Part shown: one piece after another, positions 1-31,660 of the stretch
Numbering within the stretch: the first letter of the stretch is position 1
Layout: each line of letters opens with the position of its first letter
Virus record (IMG/VR): IMGVR_UViG_3300032116_000060
Span: 1-39,085 of that record
Length of the DNA: 39,085 bases
Direction: 5' to 3' (one strand)
Source: a virus
Taxonomy: Duplodnaviria; Heunggongvirae; Uroviricota; Caudoviricetes
Program-made: the position numbers and the translations under genes
Notes under the pieces: generated by a model
Databases searched by the model: none
What the model was told of the DNA's origin: nothing
What the model saw: the letters and a program-made list of their open reading frames with translations, nothing else

Positions 1-791
1 TCATTTTTCATCATTTCGGTTAAAATCTCTTTTTGCTTACGCTTTTTATCGGTAATCAACCCATTAAATGCTATTATAAGTGCAACTGCCAACGGATCAA
101 ACACAAAAACTATGATAAAAATGAAAAATTTTACCACATTATTAAGGGAAACATCAAATGCTTCAGCTACAAATCGAAATCCACCAACTTCTCTCTCTAA
201 ATCGATGTTTTTGTTCTTAATGTTGTTGATTGAATCTAATGCAACGTTGTTCTGAATGGTTAATTCATCTATTCTTTTCGATATTTTAGTAATTTCTGAA
301 TCCGCATTACGAACCATTTGGGAAAGACGTGATGTTGAACCATTTCTTTCCACTACTTTAGAAATGTTCGCCTCCTGGGAGTTACGAATGTTTTGCTGAT
401 TGGTTAATTGAGTTGTGTATCTTTCAATCTCTTTATCATTTTTATTGATTTGAGTTTGAAATACTGCAACATCTCTTTCAATTTTTTGTAATTCTAAATT
501 TTGTTGTTGGAAGGCATTGGAAAGGTATCCAAAAATACCAGCAGATGTAATTAACATAAGAATACCTACTGATAAAGTAAGATACCATTTATTAAATCCA
601 TGTATTGAATCCCACATTTGCTTTAAGTAGGTTGCAGCAACCAATTTGGCAAATTCTAATGAACCTGCCATCACCATTACTGATAATGATGCTCCAGCAA
701 ATAATACCCCTAAACCTGTAACTGAAAAATATGCAGCACAACCTGCTACCAAAATTGCTGAAAAACCTACTAAGATTTTTAACCAATTCAT
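1..791 (-). CDS. Multi-pass membrane protein with central coiled coil, partial (runs off the left edge; absent from the ORF track)
   Basis: Manual translation from ATG at 791: MNWLKILVGFSAILVAGCAAYFSVTGLGVLFAG...SAGIFGYLSNAF...FIIVFVFDPLAVALIIAF. No stop before position 1. Three to four hydrophobic segments flank a polar heptad-rich region. Confidence 0.85.
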   Translation of the reverse strand, partial: MNWLKILVGFSAILVAGCAAYFSVTGLGVLFAGASLSVMVMAGSLEFAKLVAATYLKQMWDSIHGFNKWYLTLSVGILMLITSAGIFGYLSNAFQQQNLELQKIERDVAVFQTQINKNDKEIERYTTQLTNQQNIRNSQEANISKVVERNGSTSRLSQMVRNADSEITKISKRIDELTIQNNVALDSINNIKNKNIDLEREVGGFRFVAEAFDVSLNNVVKFFIFIIVFVFDPLAVALIIAFNGLITDKKRKQKEILTEMMKN

Positions 792-6837: not shown

Positions 6838-7219
6838 TGGTGGAGGTGGAGGGAGTCGAACCCTCGTCCAAATACGGATTTAATAAACATCGTTCACAAG
6901 CTTAGTTTGTTTTTCTTAACAAACAAAATATTCGGTTGGTTCTTCACCATCGGCAACCGATAAACAATGGGTGATTCGATTTTGGGTTCAATCACTTTTT
7001 CACCTTTATAACTACTTCTGTTACTAAGCGTATGTAGTCCGGCTCTATTGTTTGATTAGGCTGCTACAGCGTAATCAGCACCAACGAATGCCATAGCATC
7101 TTCGAAGGTCATTGTAGATAATTCTACGTCATTTATTGTTCGATAGGTATTTACGGATTTCCATCTAACCCGGCTTGCAATTCACCAACTCATCGTACCT
7201 GTCAAAACCAGGCACCCCC
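6838..7219 (-). ncRNA. ssrA: tmRNA (382 nt)
   Basis: 5' GGGGGTG pairs with 3' CACCTCC-A-CCA, giving the G3-U70 alanine determinant and an encoded CCA. T-arm GAGGG-TTCGACT-CCCTC, 5' CCTGGTTTTGACAGG, and an internal tag ORF ending YAVAA*. Confidence 0.97.
7056..7130 (-). other. tmRNA tag reading frame DVELSTMTFEDAMAFVGADYAVAA*
   Basis: Resume codon GAC inferred from the upstream AATAAAT context; 24 codons to TAA. The stop and C-terminus are certain, the resume position is inferred. Confidence 0.75.
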
Positions 7220-7221
7220 AA

Positions 7222-8781
7222 TTACTTCTTATAAAATATAAATATAGGTTCGTATTTGTAAAACTCACCATTTATCTTCATACTATTTTTTACATTTGAT
7301 AAATCAACACCTGTCATTGGAGACATCGTCATCTTTATCTTACCCTTATATTCCATACCTAATTCAGTAAGTATATCAATACTATCTTGCTCTAATGGAT
7401 AAAAACTTTTACCAATTTTAATGTCCGCAATGTTCCAAAGAATATATCTATCATTTCGTAAGTATTCGTATGCGGTTGTTAAGGTAGGTCGTAAAAATCC
7501 ATCTCTCCAACTTTCATAATTACTAAATTTCTTAAATGATTGGGTTTCATCATCGGAATACCTTTCTCTATCAAAATATGGAGGTGAAGTAAATATAAAA
7601 TCTAATTGCCCTTTCCATTTTTGAAATCCAACCTCATTACTAATAATCTCACTACCCGTTCTATAAATCTCATAGGTATTTTTATGCCCCCAAAATGGAT
7701 TAGCCGCACCAGGTATACGCGAATTAAAAAACTCAGCCAAATACTCATAACGAGTCTTACCTATTTCCTCAATATAATTTTCAGTATTCGGATCATTCCC
7801 AATATAGTGAAGGTTTCTATCATCTACACTCAATGCCCCTAAAATTCTACCACCCCAACCGGATGATGGGTCATAAATGTTAATTTGCTTTTGCTCTTTA
7901 ATATGGTTTGTAAATCTTTGATACAAATACTTCGCAGTAAGTGGAGGAAAGTTTACGGCTGCCTGTGTTCCCATTCCAATTCTAAATGCCGCAGTTGCCT
8001 CCGGAAATATAGTTTGACCTAATGGATACCACTTTAATTGAATAGGTTGTTTTTCTAAATCAACTAATGAATCTATATCTTCGCCCCAATTAGCAGTTTT
8101 AAGAGATGAAATATGTTTATACTGAATTATACCCGCTTTGTATAACTCTTTAACTTCTTCCGCAGTAATCGGTAAGGATTCAATTCGGCTATCGGTTTGA
8201 GCCAAACAAAAATCATGCCCTTCCCATACATCACCACTCATCCATTTTTCAATCCATTCTTTTGCAGTTGGTAAATGTGAATTATGGTGTTCTTTATTTC
8301 CTTTTGCAAGAGTTTTTGAGAAACGATACATTGCATCTTGTCGAGTCAATCTCCTCATTTGTTTTGCAAATTCAGCGAGATATTCATCATTACAAAAAAT
8401 ATCGTAAATAGATGGTTTCGGTTTATCGTAAGTTGAACCACCGATACCCGTTTTATACATCGCAGGAAAGAACTGATTTACTGGTGTAGCAAATTTATTG
8501 AAATTAAAGATTACCTCATCACCGTCATCATCCTTTTCTTCGAACTTATCTACCTTATAGGTTTGTAATTTTGAAAATTGTTCAATAATCTCGGCTTCCG
8601 AAGAACCAATACGAGGAGGTGCACCCGTTTCATTCCAAACTTCAACAACCGTTTTTCTGAACATTGTCACCCAATCTTCAAATTCTTTAAGTGTCATTTT
8701 AAGAACATCTTCATACTTTAAGTTAATATGAGGTTCATTAAAATAATCACACTTTTCGTAAAAATACTTCTTTTCTGACAT
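7222..8781 (-). CDS. Amino (N6A/N4C) DNA methyltransferase-like protein with long N-terminal region (start revised to MSEKK at 8781)
   Basis: SAM-binding YDPSSGWGGR and catalytic FTSPPYF motifs. Confidence 0.8.
   Translation of the reverse strand: MSEKKYFYEKCDYFNEPHINLKYEDVLKMTLKEFEDWVTMFRKTVVEVWNETGAPPRIGSSEAEIIEQFSKLQTYKVDKFEEKDDDGDEVIFNFNKFATPVNQFFPAMYKTGIGGSTYDKPKPSIYDIFCNDEYLAEFAKQMRRLTRQDAMYRFSKTLAKGNKEHHNSHLPTAKEWIEKWMSGDVWEGHDFCLAQTDSRIESLPITAEEVKELYKAGIIQYKHISSLKTANWGEDIDSLVDLEKQPIQLKWYPLGQTIFPEATAAFRIGMGTQAAVNFPPLTAKYLYQRFTNHIKEQKQINIYDPSSGWGGRILGALSVDDRNLHYIGNDPNTENYIEEIGKTRYEYLAEFFNSRIPGAANPFWGHKNTYEIYRTGSEIISNEVGFQKWKGQLDFIFTSPPYFDRERYSDDETQSFKKFSNYESWRDGFLRPTLTTAYEYLRNDRYILWNIADIKIGKSFYPLEQDSIDILTELGMEYKGKIKMTMSPMTGVDLSNVKNSMKINGEFYKYEPIFIFYKK
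7237..7246 (-). promoter_or_regulatory. TATATTTATA motif inside the MTase 3' end, upstream of the tmRNA
   Basis: Exact match to the motif at 986, 14792 and 31651; ends 17 nt before the mature tmRNA 5' end. Confidence 0.45.
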
Positions 8782-9861: not shown

Positions 9862-10403
9862 CTATCTCTTTTTTGTAATATTGGATTATTTGTAGGCCAT
9901 TCCATTTGAAACTCTGGATCATTCCACTTAACTACATATTGTTCATCTGCATCCACATAACCATCTTTATAAAATAGGTTATAGTGAAACATACAATCGG
10001 TTAGTGCATAATGTCCATTTGCAAATCCCGGCGGAACTAATACCTGATTTCTCAATCTTTCGGTTATAATGTATGATTCCCAATCTCCATAAGTTGGTGA
10101 ACCTTCTCTCATATCTAAAACAACCAAATATATATCACCTACTACCGCTTGAACTAATTTCCAAGTCTTTTTATCCCAATGTAATCCTCTTAATACACCT
10201 TTGTAAGAACGTGAAAATCTTCCATGTATTGAAAGTTCACTTTTATCATAATGTATGTGATTCATTACCGGATGCTGTTCCGAATGATATGTTGTCCATA
10301 TTTCACCTCTATACTCTCTGAATACCGATGGTTGAAATACCGGAACATCAAATCCAAATTTTTTTGATGGAGAAACTTGAAACTCATCCCATTTATTGCT
10401 CAT
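9858..10403 (-). CDS. rmlC: dTDP-4-dehydrorhamnose 3,5-epimerase family
   Basis: SYKGVLRGLH, VLDMREGSPTYG, VPPGFANGH and VKWNDP motifs. Confidence 0.9.
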   Translation of the reverse strand: MSNKWDEFQVSPSKKFGFDVPVFQPSVFREYRGEIWTTYHSEQHPVMNHIHYDKSELSIHGRFSRSYKGVLRGLHWDKKTWKLVQAVVGDIYLVVLDMREGSPTYGDWESYIITERLRNQVLVPPGFANGHYALTDCMFHYNLFYKDGYVDADEQYVVKWNDPEFQMEWPTNNPILQKRDR

Positions 10404-10407
10404 AACT

Positions 10408-11259
10408 TTAAATTAACTTACTTTTAGTATAATTATCTTTCATATATTTTTTAATGTTCATTATTGGTTCATTCACATCTTTAAAAGTAGAATACAAATT
10501 ATCATCGTATAACTTTAAAAAATCTTGATATACCGAATGATGGTATTTTGTGGTATGATGTAATAAATCTCTTGCTAAAAGTGATTCATCGTCTCTACCA
10601 TGCCATCCTCTACTACCTTCAATTACATAATAATTTGCTCCAATTTCACTTGCCAACCCTCTTATCGCCGAAGTGTTTTTATGCCAATTTAATTCAACTT
10701 GCTCATTAGTTAAAAGAGACTCTTTCATTAGATTACCAAATTTAGATTCCCAATTTTTATTATAGTTCGCGATAATATACCAGTGAGGTCTTCCATTTTC
10801 AATAAATTCATATCGAGGATACAATGGCGCATAATGGAATATATTTTTTATTTTAAGTTCTTTATAAAAAGCAAATAATAATCTAAAATGGGTATCCGTT
10901 CCTGTACCCCCTATTCCCAAATTCCAAAATTTACGACCTAATATTTTACTTAATTTATAAGACCATACATTTTCTAAATGATGACCTATTCCAAATGTAT
11001 GAGAACACCCTAAATAAACATCACCTTCATCATATGAATTAAAATCATCCGGAGTTCTAAATCCAGCATTATTTAGTTTGTATTCTATTGGATTTAATTC
11101 GTAATATTGAATACTGGGTTTATCCAGTTCTGAAATAATATGCCTATCCCAAAATTCCTTTGAATCAGTTGGTATATATTCATAAGTTTCATTCGGTTTT
11201 AAATTTAAATCATCTAATTCACATCTGTATTTTAGAATTTTATTTGTTAAATATTCCAT
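10408..11259 (-). CDS. SGNH/GDSL-like protein; C-terminus KSKLI
   Basis: LGCSHTFG block I, NLGIGG, and late RDLLHH. Confidence 0.6.
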   Translation of the reverse strand: MEYLTNKILKYRCELDDLNLKPNETYEYIPTDSKEFWDRHIISELDKPSIQYYELNPIEYKLNNAGFRTPDDFNSYDEGDVYLGCSHTFGIGHHLENVWSYKLSKILGRKFWNLGIGGTGTDTHFRLLFAFYKELKIKNIFHYAPLYPRYEFIENGRPHWYIIANYNKNWESKFGNLMKESLLTNEQVELNWHKNTSAIRGLASEIGANYYVIEGSRGWHGRDDESLLARDLLHHTTKYHHSVYQDFLKLYDDNLYSTFKDVNEPIMNIKKYMKDNYTKSKLI

Positions 11260-11260
11260 A

Positions 11261-11947
11261 TTAAATCAATGATTTTTTGAGTTTTATATTAGCTTTTCCA
11301 AAGTGTTTAATTGATTCAAATAATGTTTTAAGCTCACTATCTACAATTTTTAAATCAATCATAGATTTTTTAACAGCAATCCATATTATAATACCCTCCA
11401 TAGCACCAGGTAAATCGTAAGCCAATTTTTGATAAGGTCTAGTTTGCCTATCAATCTTTTCCCACCATTGAATAAAACTACGTTTTTTATCATTATCTTT
11501 TATATGCAAAACAAATTTACCTTCATGTATCAATTCTAAAGCATCATCGGTTACGGTAGTAAGAATAGATAAATAATCTTTCATATATTCCAACGATCCA
11601 TATACATCTCTCAATTCATCCAATCCAACTATTTTCGATGCATGAAATCCTTCATCTATATGATTCAGTATAAAAAAATCCGCATCACTTTTGATAAATG
11701 TATCTGTATCTAAAAAAAATAGTGTATCAAATTCAGTCAAAGCCTCCCCAATAACAATTCTTTTTAAATTGTAATTAAATGATTCCGATAATTTTATAAC
11801 CCTATAAACACCTTCGATAATTTTTGAAGGAGAATCAGTTCCGACTATTATTTTAAAATCCTTATCTAAATCCAATATAGATTTTGCAACTATATTAAAT
11901 TCATTAATATGTTCATCGCCGTATGCAAGAAAGCAAAAACAAAACAT
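11261..11947 (-). CDS. GT-A-like glycosyltransferase; C-terminus KKSLI
   Basis: FFLDTDTF DxD motif after KRIVIGEAL, with an N-terminal Rossmann-like strand-helix pattern. Confidence 0.55.
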   Translation of the reverse strand: MFCFCFLAYGDEHINEFNIVAKSILDLDKDFKIIVGTDSPSKIIEGVYRVIKLSESFNYNLKRIVIGEALTEFDTLFFLDTDTFIKSDADFFILNHIDEGFHASKIVGLDELRDVYGSLEYMKDYLSILTTVTDDALELIHEGKFVLHIKDNDKKRSFIQWWEKIDRQTRPYQKLAYDLPGAMEGIIIWIAVKKSMIDLKIVDSELKTLFESIKHFGKANIKLKKSLI

Positions 11948-12606
11948 TATATAATCTTATTTAAAGTATTTTGTATTCTAACCTTTTTAGTTTCAGATAA
12001 TATAAATTCATTATAATATGAATCTATTAAGTTTATTTCCAAATAATTAAATATTTTTTCTATCTCACCCTTTTTATAGGATTCGAATATATCTTCATAA
12101 TAAAAAATGGGTTGTTCACATTTGATTGATATACTAGATAGTAATTTAGCGGATGCCGTATATCTATCTACCATATTTTGAATATATAAAGAATCTATTT
12201 CTGCTATATTGTATTTTTTTGGAGTATGCCAATCTATGCCGTATTTTCTAAACATAGTTTCATTAAAAGCAAAACTTTCAGATTGTGCTAATTTATCAAT
12301 TCTATCCAATAAAATTATTTTATCGAAAAATGATATACACCAATCGAAATATGAATTCGAACTATTAAAAGATTTTAAAGGATACTCATTATTTTCAACT
12401 AATAGTAATGTTTTTACTAATAGATTATTACAATTTTGCAATGGTATAATAGTTTGAAAATCGAATCCTTTGTTTTTATACAATTGATAAAAGTTTGGAT
12501 TAAATGGTTCTATAAAAAGGGAATAATCCGGATTTAAATGTGCATTTATTAATTTAGTTAAAGAGGTAGAACCACTTCTAGGAGTAGCCAAAACTAAAAT
12601 TTTCAT
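11947..12606 (-). CDS. PAPS-dependent sulfotransferase; C-terminus LNKII
   Basis: LATPRSGSTSL (5'-phosphosulfate loop), LDRIDKLAQSES (3'-phosphate site) and FYYEDI. Confidence 0.8.
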   Translation of the reverse strand: MKILVLATPRSGSTSLTKLINAHLNPDYSLFIEPFNPNFYQLYKNKGFDFQTIIPLQNCNNLLVKTLLLVENNEYPLKSFNSSNSYFDWCISFFDKIILLDRIDKLAQSESFAFNETMFRKYGIDWHTPKKYNIAEIDSLYIQNMVDRYTASAKLLSSISIKCEQPIFYYEDIFESYKKGEIEKIFNYLEINLIDSYYNEFILSETKKVRIQNTLNKII

Positions 12607-13121
12607 AAAATTGATTTTTCTTGCATTCTAAATTTATGCAAAAACATAGCAATCGCCCATCTTTCACCACTTGTTATGGGAGTAACTTGATGAGGTGTCT
12701 GTGATTGATATATGCATACATTACCAATTTTTTTATTTATATAAATAGGATTATCGTTTTCATCAAAAATGAGATAATCCCCTCCCATAAAATTTTCGTT
12801 AAGAACAATACCTACATTCCATTCTTTTAAAGGTGATCCAGTATCTATGTGCTTACCAAATTCATCACCTATGGTATAATGATGTAAATTTAATTTTGTA
12901 GGTCGGGTATGGATTTTTAATTTAGTTTCATTTTCAAAAAAATCACACATTCTATTTATAATCCAATTTATATCATCTATAAATTCTAGTGCATAAAATT
13001 TATATTTGAAATTATCGAATATATCCCATCTACCATTATCACCCAACAGAGGATACTTATATTTTAAGTCAATAATATATTCACATTCCTCTTGTGAAAA
13101 TAAGATTGATTGATATAACAT
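12603..13121 (-). CDS. 2OG-Fe(II) oxygenase; C-terminus EKSIL
   Basis: KHID, GGD and PHQVTPITSGERW motifs. Confidence 0.9.
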   Translation of the reverse strand: MLYQSILFSQEECEYIIDLKYKYPLLGDNGRWDIFDNFKYKFYALEFIDDINWIINRMCDFFENETKLKIHTRPTKLNLHHYTIGDEFGKHIDTGSPLKEWNVGIVLNENFMGGDYLIFDENDNPIYINKKIGNVCIYQSQTPHQVTPITSGERWAIAMFLHKFRMQEKSIL

Positions 13122-13123
13122 AT

Positions 13124-13261
13124 TTAACTTAGATGTCTATCTTTAATTTTATTAACTACCGTTTGAATAGCAGCATTTACTTTTACTTTAGTATCATTAG
13201 ATAAAGCTACAATACTTGGCTTAATCGTTTGAATCGGTCTATTAATTCTTATATCTGACAT
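13124..13261 (-). CDS. 45-aa small protein (not in ORF track)
   Basis: MSDIRINRPIQTIKPSIVALSNDTKVKVNAAIQTVVNKIKDRHLS* fills the gap between the Hint gene and the next oxygenase. Confidence 0.75.
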   Translation of the reverse strand: MSDIRINRPIQTIKPSIVALSNDTKVKVNAAIQTVVNKIKDRHLS

Positions 13262-13273
13262 AATTAAATTATT

Positions 13274-14767
13274 TTAAAGTTTAGGGGGTTGGCCGCCTCC
13301 GCCACAACCCGAACAGGTGTTGTCATAACAATAGTTTCCACAATATGACCACGGACAATAACAACTATTGTGCATTACTGAAAAAACATCATCTCCGATA
13401 TCAACCAAAAAAAGGTCGGATGGCTCGAAATCCAATCCGTAAACCATCATTTGAGCGTGTTCCATTTCTAAATTAGTTATTTCTAATGTCGATAATTGTT
13501 GTGTATTAGAATCGGTTACAACTAATTTATCACCAATATACATTTGGTTTAGTTTTTCAAATCTTGTTGATGTTGAGCCGGATTCTTCAATATAGTATGT
13601 ACACGATGGAGAATCTACCCAACTTTTACCATCAGCTGTCGTTACCCTTATATAAATTGTATCTATTGATGAAGAAATAATTCCTTGTAAAGATGATGAT
13701 GTTTGAAGTAAGGTTTCATTGGATTTTGATAAACTACCACTCCATCCAAATACATTTAATTTACCTTCTTCAAAATTAGCAGCGTGATTATCGTTATAAT
13801 CTACAAAATCTATTGAACGAATATAATCTCCGATCTGTAAATCACTTGCATTAATAATTGAACCCGTATAATTAATAATTTTAGAGTCCATATCGGTGTG
13901 ATAACTTTCAATTTTTTGATTCACACCAACTTCCTTTGTGATGTATTTCTGTCTACTCTTTTGAATTAATTTTCTATCAGCAGTAAATTCATTAGCTATA
14001 AAATCAATTGGTATTACAGTGGATTGCTTATATCCACCCATACTGATTACTTCCAAATTACTACCATATATAACATCAATGCTTCTTATTATAGAATATT
14101 TATTATCCACTAAATTATCAGTTGAATATAAAAATTCTTGTATAAGGTATTCCGAAGTATTCGATGATTTTAATGAATCTAATTGAGATTGTGATTCTAA
14201 TGAATATATTGATGGATATAATGCAGTATCATAGCTAGGAGCCTGTGCTTTTACTATAACATTTGGTGTTCCATTGGTTTGAAAACTAACATTATTTAAT
14301 GTATCCATACTAACTTCAGATGAACTAAAATAAGTTTTTGGTATATATTGGCTACCGCTCATCAGTTCACAGAATCCAAATTTATCAGCACAATACGAGT
14401 CATCAATCAATGCTGTCGTATCATACGATTGTCTTAATATAAATTTAGTAGGAGAATCTTCTATATATGGTACCGTAACAGAATTAAAAGGAACGATGTA
14501 TTCATTAAAAGAAATGTTATTTTCATTACATTTTTGAACTAATTTTTCCTTAAATCGATATCTTTCATTAGATGGTGAATGGGAATCTCTTTCAGTATAT
14601 ATAAAATGAAATTCTGATATGTTATTCTGAACTAACATATCAAATAACCCATCATATTCCAATAGTTCAGCTCCAGGATTATAAATGGTTGTATTTGTAT
14701 TTATCTCTAAAATTTTTACATCATTATTGTATTCCAATAAATCTGAACCCAATATTATTGCTTTCAT
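13274..14767 (-). CDS. Circularly permuted ATP-grasp + Hint domain + C-terminal Cys-rich 30-aa peptide
   Basis: aa 1-289: N-terminal GSD...KILEINTN, then DKF...IPKTY, IVK, YLIQEF. aa 290-467: Hint-like TGSIINASDLQIGDYIRS, YIGDKL, VYGLDFEP and VMHN. aa 468-497: SCYCPWSYCGNYCYDNTCSGCGGGGQPPKL. Confidence 0.8.
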   Translation of the reverse strand: MKAIILGSDLLEYNNDVKILEINTNTTIYNPGAELLEYDGLFDMLVQNNISEFHFIYTERDSHSPSNERYRFKEKLVQKCNENNISFNEYIVPFNSVTVPYIEDSPTKFILRQSYDTTALIDDSYCADKFGFCELMSGSQYIPKTYFSSSEVSMDTLNNVSFQTNGTPNVIVKAQAPSYDTALYPSIYSLESQSQLDSLKSSNTSEYLIQEFLYSTDNLVDNKYSIIRSIDVIYGSNLEVISMGGYKQSTVIPIDFIANEFTADRKLIQKSRQKYITKEVGVNQKIESYHTDMDSKIINYTGSIINASDLQIGDYIRSIDFVDYNDNHAANFEEGKLNVFGWSGSLSKSNETLLQTSSSLQGIISSSIDTIYIRVTTADGKSWVDSPSCTYYIEESGSTSTRFEKLNQMYIGDKLVVTDSNTQQLSTLEITNLEMEHAQMMVYGLDFEPSDLFLVDIGDDVFSVMHNSCYCPWSYCGNYCYDNTCSGCGGGGQPPKL

Positions 14768-14791
14768 TTGTTACAATTATCTTTTTTCAAC

Positions 14792-14801
14792 TATAAATAT
14801 A
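14792..14801 (-). promoter_or_regulatory. TATATTTATA motif upstream of the ATP-grasp-Hint gene
   Basis: Lies in the 41-nt gap, the longest intergenic gap between 10408 and 21707. Confidence 0.55.
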
Positions 14802-14808
14802 TATAAAC

Positions 14809-15114
14809 TTAAATTATTGATTTTTCACGCTTATCCTCTATCTTTTCAATAAACCCATTATCACACTCTTCCCATTTTAGGAGTGGACAGCTATTATAAA
14901 TTTTAGTAAATATTTTTTTATTAAGGGGGCAGCCACACCCTTTACAATATTCAGACCACTTTTGATTTTTTATGACGGATTTTTTTAATTCACATTTTGA
15001 ACAAATAGAATACCTTCTTTCTGCTAATTTTTTCTCATCATCAGATGGGTTTCTGGCAGTTATCCATGCATTAAAAATTTCTTTATAATCGTATTTAATA
15101 CCATTTATTTTCAT
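14809..15114 (-). CDS. Cys-rich putative Zn-binding protein (DUF6171-like); C-terminus EKSII
   Basis: RYSICSKC...CKGCGCPL...K...SCPLLKW pattern. Confidence 0.7.
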   Translation of the reverse strand: MKINGIKYDYKEIFNAWITARNPSDDEKKLAERRYSICSKCELKKSVIKNQKWSEYCKGCGCPLNKKIFTKIYNSCPLLKWEECDNGFIEKIEDKREKSII

Positions 15115-15123
15115 AATAATTAA

Positions 15124-15753
15124 CTATAATAAAGAATTTGTTTTTAGGGGTTTTGCAACAAAATTTAAATTAAGTATATATCTACTACCTTTAGTTGGAT
15201 AATTTGCGTGATGTGCATATCTCCCATCAAAAACTAAACATCTTCCCATTTTTGGAGAAATTTTAGTCAATAGTTCAAAAGAATCTAAATTTACATTATC
15301 AAAATTTTCCATATACGTCTCTGCGTTATCTCCAAATTTATTACGATAAATACACGTATCACCATCTATATCATTAATATAATATACTGCAGCAATATGT
15401 TCTGCTATTCTATCATAGTGTAATAAATCAATTGGGTTATACTCATAATTTAACGGAGATGTATGGTTAATTTTCCATCTGTAAGTGGTTACAAATTCTA
15501 ATCCTATTTTTTTGGATATAATACGTTGTATATTCTTAATTAGCTCATCTATTTGTTCGTTCTTACAGTCGATTTGAGGATGAACTTTTGCAGGAAATTT
15601 ATGTGTATTTTTTTTACCACCGTAATTTCCTGTTATATTCTCTGTTTCATTCCATTTAATCTCACTATTGTTCGCATAGTTATATAAGATTTTTTGCTCA
15701 TCTACTGATAGCAAATCGTCAAAAACTTCATATATTTTGTCGGAATAAAGCAT
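15124..15753 (-). CDS. 2OG-Fe(II) oxygenase-like; C-terminus TNSLL
   Basis: LHYD, VYYINDIDGDT and HHANYP...RYILNLNF motifs. Confidence 0.8.
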   Translation of the reverse strand: MLYSDKIYEVFDDLLSVDEQKILYNYANNSEIKWNETENITGNYGGKKNTHKFPAKVHPQIDCKNEQIDELIKNIQRIISKKIGLEFVTTYRWKINHTSPLNYEYNPIDLLHYDRIAEHIAAVYYINDIDGDTCIYRNKFGDNAETYMENFDNVNLDSFELLTKISPKMGRCLVFDGRYAHHANYPTKGSRYILNLNFVAKPLKTNSLL

Positions 15754-15754
15754 T

Positions 15755-16543
15755 TTATATTAAGGTTTTAGTTGTTTTATGTAAATCATAGTAATCATAA
15801 ATACTATTATATTTGACAACAAAATTGTCATCTAATGGTAGATTTGTTTTTATATTTTTACTAGAATTTACATATTGTATTTTAAATGGTTTTTTAGTTT
15901 TATCAGATACCCATTTATCTAAATCTTGCAGTTTATCAAATTCAAACCATATTATATTTGGGTTATGATTTGTCCAAAAAGAAATCGGAGTTAATAGGAT
16001 ATCAATTAGATTAACCAGATAACCATTCTTTTCTTTCCAATAATTTTCTTCGTTTTTTCTACTTGATAAAGTTACGTTAATATCGACCGGTTGGTTAATT
16101 AATTTTAATTCAATTAGATAATCTGAAATTTTATCCCATCTCGTCTTTTTGCTAATTAAATCATCTTTTGTGAAAAAAAATAATTCATTCAAAGTAAAAT
16201 GGGAAAACGTATCATAAAAATCTAAATAACCCAATCGTTTAAAATCGGATAACATATGTTTGTAGAATGAATAGAAACGCTCATGTCTTTCTCTATTAAC
16301 CGCTATCACAGGAACATCAATACCAAATTTAGATTGTAAATCTGAAATGGTTTCATGTCCATGAAATATATGATTCATTAAATCTTCTTTTTCAATTGAA
16401 TTAAAATCAATATGTTCATTTGATACTTCCCATTCACCATTATTAGTTTTTACGCCAATATTATTTATAATACAAGAATAGTGAAACGAAGTAGATGCAC
16501 ATCTCGGTAAACTTAAATATATAAACTTATTATCTACTAGCAT
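15755..16543 (-). CDS. Sulfotransferase (family 2-like); C-terminus TKTLI
   Basis: FIYLSLPRCASTSF, NRERHERFYSFY and VNSS motifs. Confidence 0.75.
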   Translation of the reverse strand: MLVDNKFIYLSLPRCASTSFHYSCIINNIGVKTNNGEWEVSNEHIDFNSIEKEDLMNHIFHGHETISDLQSKFGIDVPVIAVNRERHERFYSFYKHMLSDFKRLGYLDFYDTFSHFTLNELFFFTKDDLISKKTRWDKISDYLIELKLINQPVDINVTLSSRKNEENYWKEKNGYLVNLIDILLTPISFWTNHNPNIIWFEFDKLQDLDKWVSDKTKKPFKIQYVNSSKNIKTNLPLDDNFVVKYNSIYDYYDLHKTTKTLI

Positions 16544-17112
16544 TATAATAGTGATTTGGTAACATTTTTAGATGGCCAAACATTTAAGGAATACCTATTT
16601 CTATTTTCTATCTTTTTGACAGAGTGACTTATATTAGAATCAAATATAAAAACGCTACCTATTTTCTTATTAATCGTATAAATGTTATTATCTATATTAT
16701 ATTGTATTTCACCTCCATCATAATCATCATTTAGTTGAATTATAAATGTAATCGTAGCTCCATTTAGTATTTCATGACTGTCAGAATGCCAATCTAAAAA
16801 ATCTCCTACACCATATTTGTTAAAAGAGTATTTTTTAATATAGCTGTATTCTATTCCTTTAAATGGATTTAAATTATTTGATAAATTAATAATTTTATTT
16901 GTCAGGCTTTTTACAATAGGTAAATCAAGTTGTTCATTGAGAAAATAACACCCTAATCTTTTATTACCTGCATATTCCAGGTTTTCACCAACTAATTCTC
17001 CATTGACAAATTTTGAAGATTTCATTTGGATTAAATCAATTGAATTGCCCAAATTAATTAAAGAAATACATTCATCTTCGTTTAAAAAATTTTCAATATA
17101 GCTTGCAAACAT
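16543..17112 (-). CDS. 2OG-Fe(II) oxygenase; C-terminus TKSLL
   Basis: WHSD, YDGGE and SHSVKK...RYSLNVW motifs. Confidence 0.9.
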   Translation of the reverse strand: MFASYIENFLNEDECISLINLGNSIDLIQMKSSKFVNGELVGENLEYAGNKRLGCYFLNEQLDLPIVKSLTNKIINLSNNLNPFKGIEYSYIKKYSFNKYGVGDFLDWHSDSHEILNGATITFIIQLNDDYDGGEIQYNIDNNIYTINKKIGSVFIFDSNISHSVKKIENRNRYSLNVWPSKNVTKSLL

Positions 17113-17753
17113 TATATTATTGATTTTTCTTTTTTAATATATTCAAACCCAACATTCCCCGCTAATACTATTCTATCAATAGTTGAATTAGGAGCGTTGT
17201 TTGGAGAATGAGGCATATCTGCTTCCATTATGATTAAATCATCCTCTTCAGGTCTAATCCAATACTCTTGACCATCTTTACCTTTAAAATATAATACACC
17301 ATCTTCTCCATTCATTACATCTGGCATTTGAATATAATAAACATAGGTATAGGATGGTGGAAATGATTTTGTTTTTTTATTGATTTCAGTATGAATATGA
17401 AACTTTTGATTATCATCGTAAAAGTTTGGTTGAATTGGATCTATAGATCTAACTACATTTACCCAAGCATCAATATTAATTTTATTAAAAGGTAAGTTAT
17501 TTGTAGTGTAAAGTTCTTTACATAAATCTATGCCATTTTGAATAACTTCATCTAATTTACTTTTAATCTCAATTTTACCTATAAAATTTAAATTATTATT
17601 CCATTCCTTTTTATATCCAAATCCATCAGTTTTGACACCAGGTTGAGAGTCAATAACTGAATAGGCTTCTTTTAGAAATAATGATTTATCGGTTAATTTA
17701 TTTAGTTTTGTTTTCCAAATAAAAGTGGTATCATTAAAATATAACTTTTCCAT
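17112..17753 (-). CDS. 2OG-Fe(II) oxygenase-like; C-terminus EKSII
   Basis: FHIH, YVYYIQMP and PHSP...RIVLAGN motifs. Confidence 0.75.
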   Translation of the reverse strand: MEKLYFNDTTFIWKTKLNKLTDKSLFLKEAYSVIDSQPGVKTDGFGYKKEWNNNLNFIGKIEIKSKLDEVIQNGIDLCKELYTTNNLPFNKINIDAWVNVVRSIDPIQPNFYDDNQKFHIHTEINKKTKSFPPSYTYVYYIQMPDVMNGEDGVLYFKGKDGQEYWIRPEEDDLIIMEADMPHSPNNAPNSTIDRIVLAGNVGFEYIKKEKSII

Positions 17754-18994
17754 TAAATTAATTCTTTTTTTAATACTTTTTTATTTTTTCTAAAAATAGT
17801 TTGATAATTGTGTGTAAAGAATGTCAACATATTTTGTGGAGTTTCTACTAAATCAAAGGATTTCAATAAATCTCTATCGTTTTTGATAATAATGTTGTTA
17901 TCTTTATCTAGTATTTGTTTCAATTTTTTTGGAATTGGTTTATTATATGCATCAATCCAAAATTTGTTATCCAATCTTTCCGCTAAATAGTGGTATCTAA
18001 CAAACATCATATTTTGCTCATTAATTTCTTCACACCATTTATTGAACCCATCTTTATAATTTTCATCAAAGTTTTTATCAACCAATCTTTTAAGTTGCAT
18101 AATAGTCGACATCAACGATGTTGCTTCTAATGGTTCTATAAACCCATATGATAATCCTATTGATATAGAGTTACCAATCCAACTTCTTTTATATCTACCT
18201 GGATTATAACTAAACACTTTTTGAATTTCTATTTCATGCCCTAAATAGTCTTCAACTTCTTTTTTCGCATCTTCTACTGTTATATAATCTTTATTAAAAG
18301 AATAGCCACATCCCCATCTGTGTTGTAGTTCAATTTGCCACATCCACCCACAACTCATAGCAACCATATTTGTATATGTCTTATCTTTAATTGTAAGTTT
18401 TTTATTTTGAGGTAGGAAAAATGCAATGCTACTATTAATCATTAAATATTTTGAATAATCAACCCATTCCTCATTAAATAGATTTCCAACTAATCTATTA
18501 AATCCACTACAGTCAAAAACAAAATCAGAACTAATTATTCTATCATCTACTAATTTGAAACTTTTAATAAACTCACCTGTATTATTAATTGTTTCTATTT
18601 CCCCATCAATCCAATTAACACCCCTATCTATTGCTATTTGTTTAAAGTAATCTGCAACTTTTCTTGCATCAAAATGATAACCAAATGATTTTGTAAAAAC
18701 AGTTGGCTCTTCACCTGTAAATAAATGTTTTGCTGTGCTACCATCTCCAAGCCAATTTATTAAGTTTAGCCCACGCTTATTTGTAGCACCTGTTTTTTCA
18801 TAAAAATCTTTTTGATTTATACCTAATAATGATAAAATTCTACCGAAGTTTGGTGTGCTTCCTTCGCCCGCTCCTAGTATTCCTATTTTGGAACTTTCTA
18901 CCAATGTTACATTTGTATTTTCCCAAAATTTATTTACTATTAGAGCAGTAAGCCATCCAGCAGTCCCACCTCCGATTATGATTATTTTTTTCAT
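17753..18994 (-). CDS. Flavin-dependent (tryptophan-halogenase family) halogenase; C-terminus KKELI
   Basis: IIGGGTAGW, GAGEGS, GATNKRG (catalytic Lys position), DCSGF, GWMWQIEL (WxWxI) and FIEPLEATS. Confidence 0.9.
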   Translation of the reverse strand: MKKIIIIGGGTAGWLTALIVNKFWENTNVTLVESSKIGILGAGEGSTPNFGRILSLLGINQKDFYEKTGATNKRGLNLINWLGDGSTAKHLFTGEEPTVFTKSFGYHFDARKVADYFKQIAIDRGVNWIDGEIETINNTGEFIKSFKLVDDRIISSDFVFDCSGFNRLVGNLFNEEWVDYSKYLMINSSIAFFLPQNKKLTIKDKTYTNMVAMSCGWMWQIELQHRWGCGYSFNKDYITVEDAKKEVEDYLGHEIEIQKVFSYNPGRYKRSWIGNSISIGLSYGFIEPLEATSLMSTIMQLKRLVDKNFDENYKDGFNKWCEEINEQNMMFVRYHYLAERLDNKFWIDAYNKPIPKKLKQILDKDNNIIIKNDRDLLKSFDLVETPQNMLTFFTHNYQTIFRKNKKVLKKELI

Positions 18995-19551
18995 TATAAT
19001 AATGTTTTCTTATAATTTTTTTGTGTTTCTAATTCCAACCAATTAACAATTGAATACCTAACTCCATTTTTAATTTCTTTAATTCTATGTTTAGTTAAAG
19101 ATGAAAATGCAAATAAATTACCTATTCCTTTTTTTAACGAATATACCTTACCATCAATTTCTAACTCTAATTCACCTCCTTCATATTCATCGTTAAGTTG
19201 AATTACAATTGTTAAAATTCGTTGATTATATACATCATCTGAAGAATCGGTGTGCCAATTAAAATAATCTCCATTTTGGTATTTAGTAAATTGATAGTTT
19301 GAAATTTTGAAATTGTATCCTTTTATACCAAAGTATTCTTTTAGCTTTTTAATAATTCTATCATTAAGTTCTTCCAAATCGATTCCCGCAACTTTAGATT
19401 TTCTTTTACTAACATCAATAACATTATTCATTAATTTACTATCATACACTTCCGCTATTTTTAAAACCGATTCATTTACACACTTATTAAGTATCTGATT
19501 ACATTCTTCTTTAGAGAATACATTTTCGAAAACTTTAAATTTACCAATCAT
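18994..19551 (-). CDS. 2OG-Fe(II) oxygenase (start revised to MIGKF at 19551); C-terminus KKTLL
   Basis: WHTD, YEGGEL and HRIKEIKNGVRYSIVNW motifs. Confidence 0.9.
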   Translation of the reverse strand: MIGKFKVFENVFSKEECNQILNKCVNESVLKIAEVYDSKLMNNVIDVSKRKSKVAGIDLEELNDRIIKKLKEYFGIKGYNFKISNYQFTKYQNGDYFNWHTDSSDDVYNQRILTIVIQLNDEYEGGELELEIDGKVYSLKKGIGNLFAFSSLTKHRIKEIKNGVRYSIVNWLELETQKNYKKTLL

Positions 19552-20066
19552 ATTAAAGAAAATTTTGATTGTTTTTTTGAAAACCAAACAATTAATACCT
19601 CTCGATTTCCTTTTGTAATCGGCTTTACTTCATGAAAATCATTACCACCAAAGAAACTTACATATTCACCGTTTGTATTTAATTGTATCTTTTTATCATT
19701 TACATACATATCCCCTCCCTCAAATTCATCTGATAAAATTATACTTACCGTTTTATGTGTTGCATATCTATCTTTATGTTTTTTCGCAAAATCACCTACA
19801 CCATAGATGTGTTTATGTATCATATACAAATACTCAATGGGTTCTTCTAATTTCTCACATAAAAAGTTGTTAAGATTTTTGTTTTTTAATGAATATATTA
19901 TAGAATTTTCGGTAATAAGAGCCACATCATCCCCTTTTTCTCCAATATATGTGGAATAAAGTTGAGAATGTGCAGATTTTACGAACTTAATTTCATCATC
20001 ATTCATCAATGGAGTTATTTCCAATTGAGATTTTAAATACAAAAAATCATCTAACAATAATTTCAT
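19548..20066 (-). CDS. 2OG-Fe(II) oxygenase; C-terminus KFSLI
   Basis: KHKD, FEGGD and HEVKPITKGNREVLIVW motifs. Confidence 0.9.
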   Translation of the reverse strand: MKLLLDDFLYLKSQLEITPLMNDDEIKFVKSAHSQLYSTYIGEKGDDVALITENSIIYSLKNKNLNNFLCEKLEEPIEYLYMIHKHIYGVGDFAKKHKDRYATHKTVSIILSDEFEGGDMYVNDKKIQLNTNGEYVSFFGGNDFHEVKPITKGNREVLIVWFSKKQSKFSLI

Positions 20067-20686
20067 ATTATTTTATTTGTTTTAGATTGAAAGGCCACTA
20101 AATCATCTTTTATATCTAAAAAGGTATGCATTTTTTTATAAAATTCATAGCAACCTTTCCAACCAGGATGCCAATCCATAGGATCACCTCCTTCATCTGC
20201 AATCGAAGTAACCTGAATCAACTCAACAAAATCAGAAGTCATCTTATGAAAATCTTCATTCCAGGTCACAAATACCGGAGAAAAATCATTATACAACTCT
20301 TTAAGTTTTTTTAAAAATAGTATTTCATTATTTCTTTCACCATTTAACCAATGTGATGTTTCGGATAATCTAACTTCTAATAATTTTTTTGCAAATTGTT
20401 TATCTTTATACCATTCCCAATTAAAATATTTTATATGATGATGTGTTTCTCTTTCCCCAAAAAATCTTCTTGGAAATCTACCTGGTGCACTAAATACAAT
20501 CACTAATCTATCACCATATTCGTATTTTGGAATTAAACCTGTTTGATAAAGAATAGAATGATTATCCGCGCCAAATTTTCCTAACTTAATAACATTGTAG
20601 TGATTGGATAAATAATTAGTCCAATGAGTTTCAGGCATATCCCAATCTACAAAACTATCACCGCAAATGTAAATGCTAGGTTTCAT
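20063..20686 (-). CDS. SGNH/GDSL-like protein (start revised to MKPSIY at 20686); C-terminus TNKII
   Basis: ICGDSF, GADN and MDWHPG motifs. Confidence 0.65.
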   Translation of the reverse strand: MKPSIYICGDSFVDWDMPETHWTNYLSNHYNVIKLGKFGADNHSILYQTGLIPKYEYGDRLVIVFSAPGRFPRRFFGERETHHHIKYFNWEWYKDKQFAKKLLEVRLSETSHWLNGERNNEILFLKKLKELYNDFSPVFVTWNEDFHKMTSDFVELIQVTSIADEGGDPMDWHPGWKGCYEFYKKMHTFLDIKDDLVAFQSKTNKII

Positions 20687-20687
20687 A

Positions 20688-20903
20688 TTAATTATCCTTT
20701 TTAAGGCCAAACTTTATCCACTTATACCAAACTCTTTCGTGAAGATAATACTGAATAGGTTTATAGATTAATTCTGCTACACCAAATGCTGCACCAACTT
20801 TAATTGAGCCACTTACCCACCACATAATACCAAACCCTATTAGAGTTGAAACTATTCGATATGATATAGTTTTAGCTATGTGCCTCTTTCTCTCTACTAT
20901 CAT
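20688..20903 (-). CDS. DUF2061-like small membrane protein
   Basis: RHIAKTISYRIVST...YYLHERVW pattern. Confidence 0.85.
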   Translation of the reverse strand: MIVERKRHIAKTISYRIVSTLIGFGIMWWVSGSIKVGAAFGVAELIYKPIQYYLHERVWYKWIKFGLKKDN

Positions 20904-21279
20904 CGTTATCTATATTATAAACAATTACATCACCGTTAGAATCGATGTATTTTTTTCTAATCGCAGTTCCGCTTATGGCTTCGATTTCTTTCGGAGGAGT
21001 ATGATATATTACCTCATATCCAACTGCTCTACCATAGTTTACCGATTCGATATCTGGTATCACACTTATGTATATTTTCTTTGAGTTTTCTACAAAAAAA
21101 GGTTCTTTACACAAATCCATTAAAACCTGATGAGCAGACTTAGGATTGTTCTCATCTTTCGGAACATCTCTAATTGCTACCCAAACATCTTTCCCTTTAT
21201 CCAATTGTTGGCGGATTAACCATTCGTGTCCGGCGTGCCAAGTCTGCCACCTTCCAATAAACATTGCATATTTTTTCAT
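20872..21279 (-). CDS. HxGH nucleotidyltransferase (cytidylyltransferase-like)
   Basis: FIGRWQTWHAGH and the late ISGTAIR motif. Confidence 0.8.
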   Translation of the reverse strand: MKKYAMFIGRWQTWHAGHEWLIRQQLDKGKDVWVAIRDVPKDENNPKSAHQVLMDLCKEPFFVENSKKIYISVIPDIESVNYGRAVGYEVIYHTPPKEIEAISGTAIRKKYIDSNGDVIVYNIDNDDSREKEAHS

Positions 21280-21707
21280 ATTAGTGATTTTAATCTTTGA
21301 AATGTTGTAAACTCATCCTCATCTGTCGTATCTACATCTATAAAGTTTTTCAACGGCGGTTCGTAGTTAGAAACGTGAAACGATTCTCTACCCCTTATAT
21401 CGGTAGTATGAACATATAATTCTTTTATATTCTCACCCATTTCGGTTTTAAATGCTTCTCTTTGGTCTCTATAAGGAGAAACTAATGAGACAATTGCCAC
21501 ATTACCTTTGTGGTGAAAAAACTTAGCCATTCGTTGAGCAAGTTCTATGTTCTTTCTCCTTCCTGCTTCGGAGTAATCTTTATTATCAAATATGGCCCTT
21601 ATATCATCTCCATCGATTACCATACCCCTCTCCCTAAAATGAGCTTGAAACCAATTTGCTAATGTAGTTTTCCCCGCACCTGGCTGACCCGTAAACCAAT
21701 ATATCAT
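21276..21707 (-). CDS. cysC: Adenylyl-sulfate kinase; C-terminus LKSLI
   Basis: WFTGQPGAGKTT, DGDDIR, SLVSPYRDQR and YEPP motifs. Confidence 0.92.
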   Translation of the reverse strand: MIYWFTGQPGAGKTTLANWFQAHFRERGMVIDGDDIRAIFDNKDYSEAGRRKNIELAQRMAKFFHHKGNVAIVSLVSPYRDQREAFKTEMGENIKELYVHTTDIRGRESFHVSNYEPPLKNFIDVDTTDEDEFTTFQRLKSLI

Positions 21708-31650: not shown

Positions 31651-31660
31651 TATAAATATA
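31651..31660 (-). promoter_or_regulatory. TATATTTATA motif 3 nt upstream of ATG 31647
   Basis: Exact motif copy. Confidence 0.55.

Follow-up and report, generated by a model that had tools for sequence, protein, structure and literature searches.

Why would a tailed phage encode, in a single chain, a protein with the makings of an amide ligase, a Hint (Hedgehog/intein) domain and a cysteine-rich tail, and keep its gene among oxygenases, a halogenase and a sulfotransferase? The question is raised by P0001, a 497-residue protein encoded on the minus strand of a 39,085-nt stretch of viral DNA (hereafter the window; positions 1–39,085 of IMG/VR record IMGVR_UViG_3300032116_000060, Caudoviricetes). 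An earlier description made from the letters of the DNA (the sequence-only reading) had taken the gene for a circularly permuted ATP-grasp ligase fused to a Hint domain that cuts only at its C-terminal end, releasing a 30-residue, six-Cys peptide with a free N-terminal Ser. The open reading frame (ORF), its coordinates and strand, and the motifs quoted for it are all present in the sequence. Our answer, to which we give a probability of roughly 45%, is that P0001 may be a phage-specific, single-turnover protein that is ligase and substrate at once, and the hub of an island of enzymes sharing a C-terminal tag. The parts of the gene on which the argument turns are the following, the near clade being the 116 close homologues with 59–99% identity:

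13274–14767, minus strand: whole gene of P0001 (ATP-grasp, Hint and Cys-rich tail), 497 aa
13910–14767, minus strand: circularly permuted ATP-grasp ligase domain of the GspS/YgiC branch, residues 1–286, from the fold model
14696–14743, minus strand: predicted Mg2+/ATP ligand motif D9 ... E21-I-N23-T24 at the extreme N-terminus, conserved in 171/171 aligned sequences
13367–13900, minus strand: Hint domain without an N-terminal nucleophile, residues 290–467, from fold and profile match
13367–13372, minus strand: block G pair His466-Asn467, with the predicted scissile bond after Asn467, from conservation
13277–13366, minus strand: six-Cys tail C-x-C-P-W-x2-C-G-x2-C-x4-C-x2-C ... K-L, residues 468–497 (30 aa)
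13280–13282, minus strand: single Lys of the tail (Lys496), kept in 99% of the near clade

An AlphaFold2 (AF2) model of the full-length protein, built from an alignment of 89 sequences, reached a predicted local distance difference test (pLDDT) score of 88.6 and a predicted template modeling (pTM) score of 0.83, with disorder limited to residues 474–497. The N-terminal domain folded alone gave a pLDDT of 95.4. It superimposed on YgiC (7uka) with Z = 10.0 over 199 aligned residues, residues 1–275 of the model falling on residues 94–371 of the chain, and on GspS (2io7) with Z = 9.2; eukaryotic glutathione synthetases, Mfla_0391 and trypanothione synthetase were also found as structural matches. 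A Foldseek search with the domain gave E ≈ 9e-6 to YgiC/YjfC, and the top 27 matches all belonged to the GspS/YgiC branch. ATP-grasps of canonical order (RimK, LysX/ArgX, the TTLLs and Ddl) can be superimposed only from residue ~50 on, with Z of about 4–6.3. The only matches of the domain to PDB entries at the sequence level were to biotin carboxylases (weak, E ~1), in which P0001 residues 9–34 align to the Mg-ligand motif EF..IEMNTR at residues 274–299. Because the canonical enzymes align from about residue 50 and the biotin carboxylase motif is placed in this way, the order in P0001 is a permuted one, in which the ExN segment has been moved from the end of the domain to its start.

Conservation was counted over 174 unique proteins from 249 loci. 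D9, E21 and N23 are present in all of the 171 sequences that align there without a gap, T24, R112 and D122 are kept wherever a sequence aligns, and all 174 proteins have K173 and R228. By alignment offset, D9, E21 and N23 fall on residues 318, 330 and 332 of GspS, which we take to be its metal-binding triad. Modeled fold and conserved residues together show the N-terminal domain to be an intact permuted ATP-grasp amide ligase. The GspS family (2io7, YgiC/YjfC 7uka and 7uk6, and the eukaryotic glutathione synthetases) has the same permuted topology, with D...ExN preceding both the phosphate-binding Lys and the QE[FY] hinge. The chemistry implied by this likeness is the joining of a peptide C-terminal carboxylate to a primary amine, which in GspS, YgiC and YjfC is that of a polyamine; a passage of PMC12568646 that cites Pederick 2023 describes YgiC and YjfC as peptide–spermidine ligases. 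Unlike these enzymes, the P0001 ligase is only 286 residues long and lacks the first ~93 residues of YgiC, is 11–17% identical to members of the family, is fused to a Hint domain and occurs in phages only.

Residues 290–467 superimposed on structures of the Hint fold, with its pseudo-two-fold symmetry, with Z of 15–17 and a root-mean-square deviation (rmsd) of ~2 Å over 135–146 residues. These included the bacterial intein-like (BIL) domain BIL2 (6y75; Z = 16.9, rmsd 1.8 Å, 140 residues aligned), the NpuDnaB intein (4o1r; Z = 16.0), a clostridial BIL domain (2lwy; Z = 16.0) and Hedgehog (1at0; Z = 15.5), and the Mtu RecA mini-intein superposes on the same residues. In these superpositions, His290 takes the place of intein residue 1 and Asn467 that of the terminal intein Asn. 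At the sequence level, the family profile reached the KlbA intein (2jmz) with E = 3.8e-8, in an alignment where TxxH of block B corresponds to S386-P-S-C389 and block F to VYGLDFEPSDLFLV, as had been proposed for both blocks. Both modeled folds of P0001, the permuted ATP-grasp and the Hint domain, are almost certain. The two domain identities of the sequence-only reading, and the leading D...ExN of its permuted ligase, thus stand by structure and by order of alignment; Pfam models detect neither domain in P0001. Scans of Pfam and PHROGs gave no match for the protein, and with a limit of E 0.05, GSP_synth, CP_ATPgrasp and ATP-grasp_x matched neither P0001 nor any of 89 relatives. An Atlas feature search gave a weak lead to ATP-grasp families (score 0.75–0.76).

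What can such a Hint domain still do? At the position of the catalytic Cys1, the family has His (88 of the 174 proteins), Lys (60), Ile (10), Ser (6) or Thr (5) and in no case Cys, and the block-B His position is occupied by Ser (81), Cys (39) or Ala (31). Since P0001 has neither the position-1 nucleophile nor the block-B His, only a C-terminal cut would be possible. The Hint domain is otherwise only ~25% identical across the family, and blocks A and B have drifted freely. Despite this, His466 is kept in 172 and Asn467 in all of the 174 unique proteins, and counted by locus the Asn is found in 249/249 and the His in 246. Block F retains E448 in 144/174 proteins, with Asp (111) or His (47) at position 451 in 158/174. 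A terminal His-Asn that is kept while the N-terminal residues drift is the pattern expected if only Asn cyclization were under selection, and from this conservation we predict that P0001 probably cleaves itself after Asn467. The residue that would follow the cut is variable (Ser in 52, Gly in 27, Ala in 18, Thr in 14 and Pro in 12 of the 174). The expected junction of His-Asn followed by Ser or Cys was therefore found in its first half only, and the exposed Ser emphasized in the sequence-only reading is peculiar to a minority of members, whereas the loss of N-terminal chemistry and the intact His-Asn were borne out.

Could the Hint domain instead be a degenerate structural or adaptor domain that does not cleave, with the tail as an attached metal-binding or redox module and the ligase making a small amide product for the pathway of the island? 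The ligase residues are indeed the most conserved part of the protein, the tail is optional, as described below, and its spacing C-x3-C-x4-C-x2-C resembles that of metal-binding motifs; AF2 is unable to model it without a ligand. An invariant Asn and a nearly invariant His within such a divergent domain are nevertheless hard to explain on structural grounds, and the far side of the tail, to which we return below, adds to the difficulty.

The tail itself is modeled with a pLDDT of <50. In the near clade, five of its Cys residues are 100% conserved and Cys488 99%, and the loops between them vary. Position 470 is Trp in 96% of these proteins (Tyr in P0001), P472 and W473 are kept in 96–99% and G477 in 100%. 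The non-Cys positions of the tail have an entropy of 1.68 bits in this clade, versus 1.01 for the ligase and 0.83 for the Hint domain. The notion that the tail is uniquely hypervariable among close relatives was found to be only partly true, since the window 178–207 of the ligase lid reaches 1.86 bits. Judged by sequence comparison, the real diversity of the tail is between clades, each with a framework particular to it (6, 8, 10 or 12 Cys in 20–100 residues). Tails contain 18.8% Cys, 8.7% Pro, 8.2% Tyr and 4.7% Trp, versus 0.5–5% in the body of the protein. In a separate observation, four loci (L207, L216, L219 and L222; targets ~10001–11480) form the only near-clade subgroup without a neighboring halogenase; their C-W-C-P-W has become C-W-C-[SG]-x-W, with loss of the Pro, in what amounts to a single event.

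A Lys is present in 159/159 tails, where 18% would be expected to lack one, and exactly one is present in 80%, where 30% would be expected (both figures uncorrected for relatedness). Because a single Lys is so constant, its side chain is a second candidate amine next to the α-amine that cleavage would free.

The alignment of homologues thus revealed, as the sequence-only reading had anticipated for a peptide core, a variable and clade-specific Cys-rich segment after a conserved His-Asn. The tail is also optional: some members have only 5–8 residues after His-Asn (RCAYK in locus L010). Others carry a canonical Hint domain directly after His-Asn. With such members in the family, release of a six-Cys peptide cannot be what all of it has as its core function. 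Members with very short tails raise the further possibility that the protein is a zymogen, in which the tail is a propeptide for autoinhibition or targeting whose removal by the Hint domain activates the ligase or exposes the carboxylate of the C-terminal Asn, the ligase then acting on other substrates, for example tagged C-termini and an external amine. This would account for the conservation of His-Asn ahead of so few residues, for the free swapping of tails between clades, and for an association with the tagged enzymes that is independent of tail type. Across 116 homologues, however, a propeptide would be unlikely to preserve a framework of six Cys together with C-W-C-P-W and a lone Lys.

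Further modules are found on the far side of the tail. Some relatives have a second, canonical Hint domain beyond it, this time with Cys1 (PT-HINT 49 bits, Intein_splicing 57.9 bits, both above the Pfam cut-offs), that ends in His-Asn; K, KK or KKF comes after this, and position +1 has no nucleophile. A splicing intein was considered for this domain and excluded, because the residue after His-Asn is never Cys, Ser or Thr. Where a second Hint is present, Lys is missing from the Cys-rich core and is found after that Hint instead. Where a canonical Hint directly follows His-Asn it need not be alone: P0250 (754 aa) has two of them in tandem (Pfam 477–624 and 627–717). Other relatives, P0001 not among them, have an ~80-residue C-terminal module, putatively of S74 type, after the tail, opening with SD...K.NI, in which S14, D15, K19 and N21 are invariant over 12 extensions. 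The Pfam match of this module (E 0.007–0.08) is below the cut-off, its best PDB match, to the released chaperone domain of the GA-1 neck appendage (3gud), is weak (E 0.15) and is aligned from the opening SD, and 13% of the members of one Atlas cluster carry PF13884. The recruitment of independent self-cleaving modules, a second Hint and a putative S74 domain, to the other flank of the tail is not what would be expected if the Hint domain of P0001 were inert, and we consider the absence of cleavage improbable. A second cleavage module on the far side would also be unexpected for a propeptide, and of the readings weighed here the zymogen is the one to which we give the least credence.

The surroundings of the gene supply a further line of evidence:

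10408–21707, minus strand: island of enzymes ending in [STK][LI][LIF]-COOH, from Pfam matches and C-termini

In the window, this island contains six 2-oxoglutarate (2OG) oxygenases of the prolyl 4-hydroxylase (P4H) type (PF13640), a Trp halogenase, a sulfotransferase, an adenosine 5'-phosphosulfate (APS) kinase and others. An oxygenase of 172 aa (12603–13121) is among the tagged neighbors of P0001. The C-terminal motif is present in 13/18 genes of the island versus 0/148 genes elsewhere in the 103-kb source record. Over 174 unique loci, its frequency falls with distance from the P0001-type gene, from 0.55 within <2 kb through 0.34, 0.17 and 0.09 to 0.06 at 8–10 kb, and at least three tagged neighbors were found in 134/155 loci. 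The P0001-type gene is the center of the tagged island. We considered whether the tag could be a by-product of translational coupling or a DNA signal ahead of the next start codon, and excluded both, since the motif is written in differing codons, precedes spacers of 40–117 nt and recurs in diverged islands; it is therefore a feature of the proteins. Unrelated enzymes carrying the tag are also found in L002, L004, L005, L009, L010 and L011, and the genes outside these islands mostly end in Lys. The gp41–gp54 array of Syn9 similarly combines unrelated 2OG-Fe(II) oxygenases and Trp halogenases in a large marine phage (Iyer et al. 2010, PMC2938197). Unlike the islands described here, the dioxygenase/halogenase arrays of Syn9 and HTVC008M have no P0001-type gene, and the motif is present in 0/20 and 0/12 of their genes.

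Around distant homologues, the islands contain radical S-adenosylmethionine (SAM)/SPASM and B12-radical-SAM enzymes, SET and other methyltransferases, and Asp/Arg-hydroxylase and P4H-type enzymes, together with a carbamoyltransferase, an AMP-binding enzyme, glycosyltransferases, sugar-nucleotide enzymes and RmlC. A trio of APS kinase, a small DUF2061-type protein and a protein of ~120–135 aa (window 20872–21707, minus strand) recurs beside distant relatives, which suggests a conserved module supplying 3'-phosphoadenosine 5'-phosphosulfate to the sulfotransferases of the island.

Enzymes of this sort bring back the interpretation of the sequence-only reading, that of a precursor resembling those of peptides synthesized ribosomally and modified post-translationally (RiPPs). 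The 467-residue body would then be the leader, the island enzymes would dock by their C-terminal motif and tailor the tail, the Hint domain would release it, and the ATP-grasp would cap it or cyclize it head to tail. The residues enriched in the tail (Cys, Pro, Tyr and Trp) are those on which the enzyme classes of the islands act, and the radical-SAM, SET and hydroxylase families of the distant islands fit as well. Precursors fused to an enzyme are known from the borosins (PMC8429565), and protein-like leaders are also known (PMC12537861). For the cyanophage arrays, Iyer et al. 2010 (PMC2938197) proposed the tailoring of a peptide or secondary metabolite and left the substrate unexplained. The Trp halogenase, moreover, occurs only beside tails that contain Trp (28/59 loci versus 0/32). 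This last pattern is not usable as evidence for halogenation of the tail, because two changes on the protein tree suffice to produce it (two independent pairs, sign test p = 1). Full tagged islands also surround tails of five residues, as in L010, which offer no core to tailor, and the sugar-nucleotide enzymes, RmlC and the glycosyltransferases would suit glycan chemistry equally. The residue left at the N-terminus after cleavage is variable and not Cys, so that a cyclization of the native-chemical-ligation type is inapplicable. We regard a RiPP-like precursor as rather unlikely on balance.

How, then, would a single-turnover protein that is both ligase and substrate work? The ATP-grasp would activate a carboxylate with ATP and join it to an amine that its own tethered tail provides. 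The acceptor would be the side chain of the single Lys, which is polyamine-like, or the α-amine freed by cleavage. Conversion of Asn467 to a succinimide would cut the Asn467–Ser468 bond and free the tail, modified or not. The likeliest carboxylate donors would be the x-[ST]-[LI]-[LI]-COOH ends of the surrounding enzymes, and P0001 would act as hub in a small system for conjugation or recruitment, together with a Zn-ribbon protein and a protein of ~45 aa encoded next to it. These parts differ in how far we would trust them. That the tail is the amine substrate of its own ligase is a real possibility, if at somewhat less than even odds. The assignment of the tagged C-termini as carboxylate donors is more tentative and, taken by itself, unlikely. 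More doubtful again is the full scheme, a ubiquitin conjugation in reverse, in which the ligase would join the [ST]-[LI]-[LI]-COOH ends of at least 10 island enzymes to the Lys or the N-terminus of its own tail and the Hint domain would free the conjugate.

Several observations weigh against the ligase-plus-substrate interpretation. AF2 does not dock the tail on the ligase. The whole enzyme is kept in members with tails of 5–8 residues or with a canonical Hint right after His-Asn, so the core function does not depend on the Cys-rich peptide. A Lys that lies beyond the second Hint misfits a simple model in which the Lys of the peptide is the acceptor. The C-terminal Lys may in part reflect a habit of AT-rich phages, in which many proteins outside the island end in Lys, and the Lys statistic counts relatives without correction for kinship. 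Lastly, another protein could just as well read the tag, as a docking motif, as a degron or as a localization signal.

Known systems share individual elements of this arrangement. Like the BIL and PT-HINT domains of polymorphic toxins, P0001 has a Hint fold with terminal His-Asn and combines a conserved N-terminal part with a hypervariable C-terminal cargo that the Hint would presumably set free. Unlike in those proteins, the cargo is a Cys-rich peptide of 20–100 residues rather than a toxin domain, and the partner domain is an amide ligase. There is also no immunity gene as in polymorphic toxins, and the small ORF downstream is conserved and not polymorphic. Inteins (class 2 KlbA, 2jmz, and class 3) give the best match at the sequence level, with blocks F and G recognizable; in contrast to them, the P0001 Hint lacks a nucleophile at position 1 and at +1 and lacks the block-F Cys of class 3. 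As it interrupts no host protein and is followed by nothing more than the tail, it cannot splice.

The borosins (PMC8429565) likewise hold the modifying enzyme and a potential substrate peptide at its C-terminus in one chain and are single-turnover. P0001 differs from them in that its enzyme is an ATP-grasp and not a methyltransferase, and in that release is predicted to be by a built-in Hint domain and not by a separate protease. In the LysW/LysX carrier system, an ATP-grasp similarly joins the substrate to a small Cys4 zinc protein that serves a series of enzymes, and the ArgX/LysX fold matches the P0001 ligase with Z of 5.8–5.9. The polarity would be reversed, with the amine on the carrier in P0001, where the carrier is fused and releasable, and there is no sequence relationship between the two systems. 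In the literature, we found no description of the ligase–Hint–tail fusion or of the island layout.

Where is this protein found? The gene lies in a compact, co-directional array of 25–31% G+C. The source record is 103 kb long and estimated to be 40% complete, and related contigs reach 288–335 kb, so P0001-type genes are carried by jumbo tailed phages. The family is common in metagenomes: there are 567 close homologues of ~495 residues, and an exhaustive search placed the family in 263 clusters at 50% identity. All of its clusters in the Atlas are viral (Uroviricota), and the family is found in phages only. No close relative was picked up by a pattern scan in any of 185,579 prokaryote species genomes, and tblastn against 50,697 phage records found none, so that no record of a cultured phage among these has one. 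Megablast with 22 kb of the window gave no match. The two-domain fold of P0001 is also present in one uncharacterized UniProt entry.

The hub proposed above would include the products of two adjacent genes:

14809–15114, minus strand: Zn-ribbon-like partner of 101 aa, CxxC...CxxCGCP...C, ending in EKSII
13124–13261, minus strand: ORF of 45 aa immediately downstream, ending in ...VVNKIK.RHLS

In 117/120 loci, the Zn-ribbon partner accompanies the P0001-type gene, the median distance between the two being 380 nt. In an Atlas structure search, its fold was found inside a family of 397-aa phage proteins (template modeling score 0.72 by query), with a weak likeness to RING and DUF6171. A small ORF occupies the downstream position in 115/171 loci by ATG-start calling, 88 of them recognized by a hidden Markov model, and an uncalled copy is present in L010. 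A complex was predicted of P0001 with the small ORF product and ATP, the Zn-ribbon protein being the partner that was scored. Its interaction prediction score from aligned errors (ipSAE) was 0.54, versus 0.00 for the best control, the contact agreement between runs was at least 24% and the pLDDT of the partner at least 62. The pass mark was reached by 58/80 solved complexes and by 2/110 mismatched pairs; among passes with an ipSAE of 0.60 or less, however, were only 7 of the 80 solved complexes and both of the mismatches, and the run used its own alignments and ATP, unlike the calibration. The model lends weak support to the predicted binding of P0001 by the Zn-ribbon protein.

One further element lies upstream of the gene:

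14792–14801, minus strand: TATATTTATA motif, 25–34 nt upstream of the P0001 start codon

The upstream motif of the sequence-only reading is thus in place. The window contains it four times, in each case on the coding strand (986–995, 7237–7246, 14792–14801 and 31651–31660, minus strand), of which three are just upstream of a gene or of the transfer-messenger RNA (tmRNA) gene. A count of four was also reached in 4/100 shuffles, so the motif is suggestive only; it may be a phage promoter element. A scan for sigma-70 promoters and terminators around the P0001 gene gave nothing better than shuffles. The tmRNA gene is complete and in one piece (window 6838–7219, minus strand; 24-residue tag ending in ...YAVAA by ARAGORN; RF00023 at 110.8 bits over the full-length model), with a copy of TATATTTATA 18–27 nt upstream. 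Outside the window, the 103-kb record (G000) also encodes a GroEL-type chaperonin (E 2e-180), an RNA ligase and a radical-SAM protein (51696–53330, 57499–58638 and 84435–85673; L006 and L008).

The P0001 family is abundant, with hundreds of clusters, on jumbo-phage contigs of up to 335 kb and in tailed phages only. If the Hint domain cuts as predicted, these phages would have a natural one-gene combination of an amide ligase with a self-releasing, rapidly diversifying peptide of disulfide or metal type. To our knowledge, such a design of ligation and self-release is described in neither RiPP nor intein/Hedgehog biology. It would be useful for engineering, as tag-directed ligation with a traceless, protease-free release. 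If the reversed form of ubiquitin conjugation were true, one and the same small cysteine knot would be attached to all the tailoring enzymes and would serve in assembly, in targeting or in the binding of metal. The gene also provides a handle on the question, raised in 2010, of what the dioxygenase/halogenase arrays of marine and freshwater phages act on, and it marks a subset of these arrays that has a C-terminal label in common.

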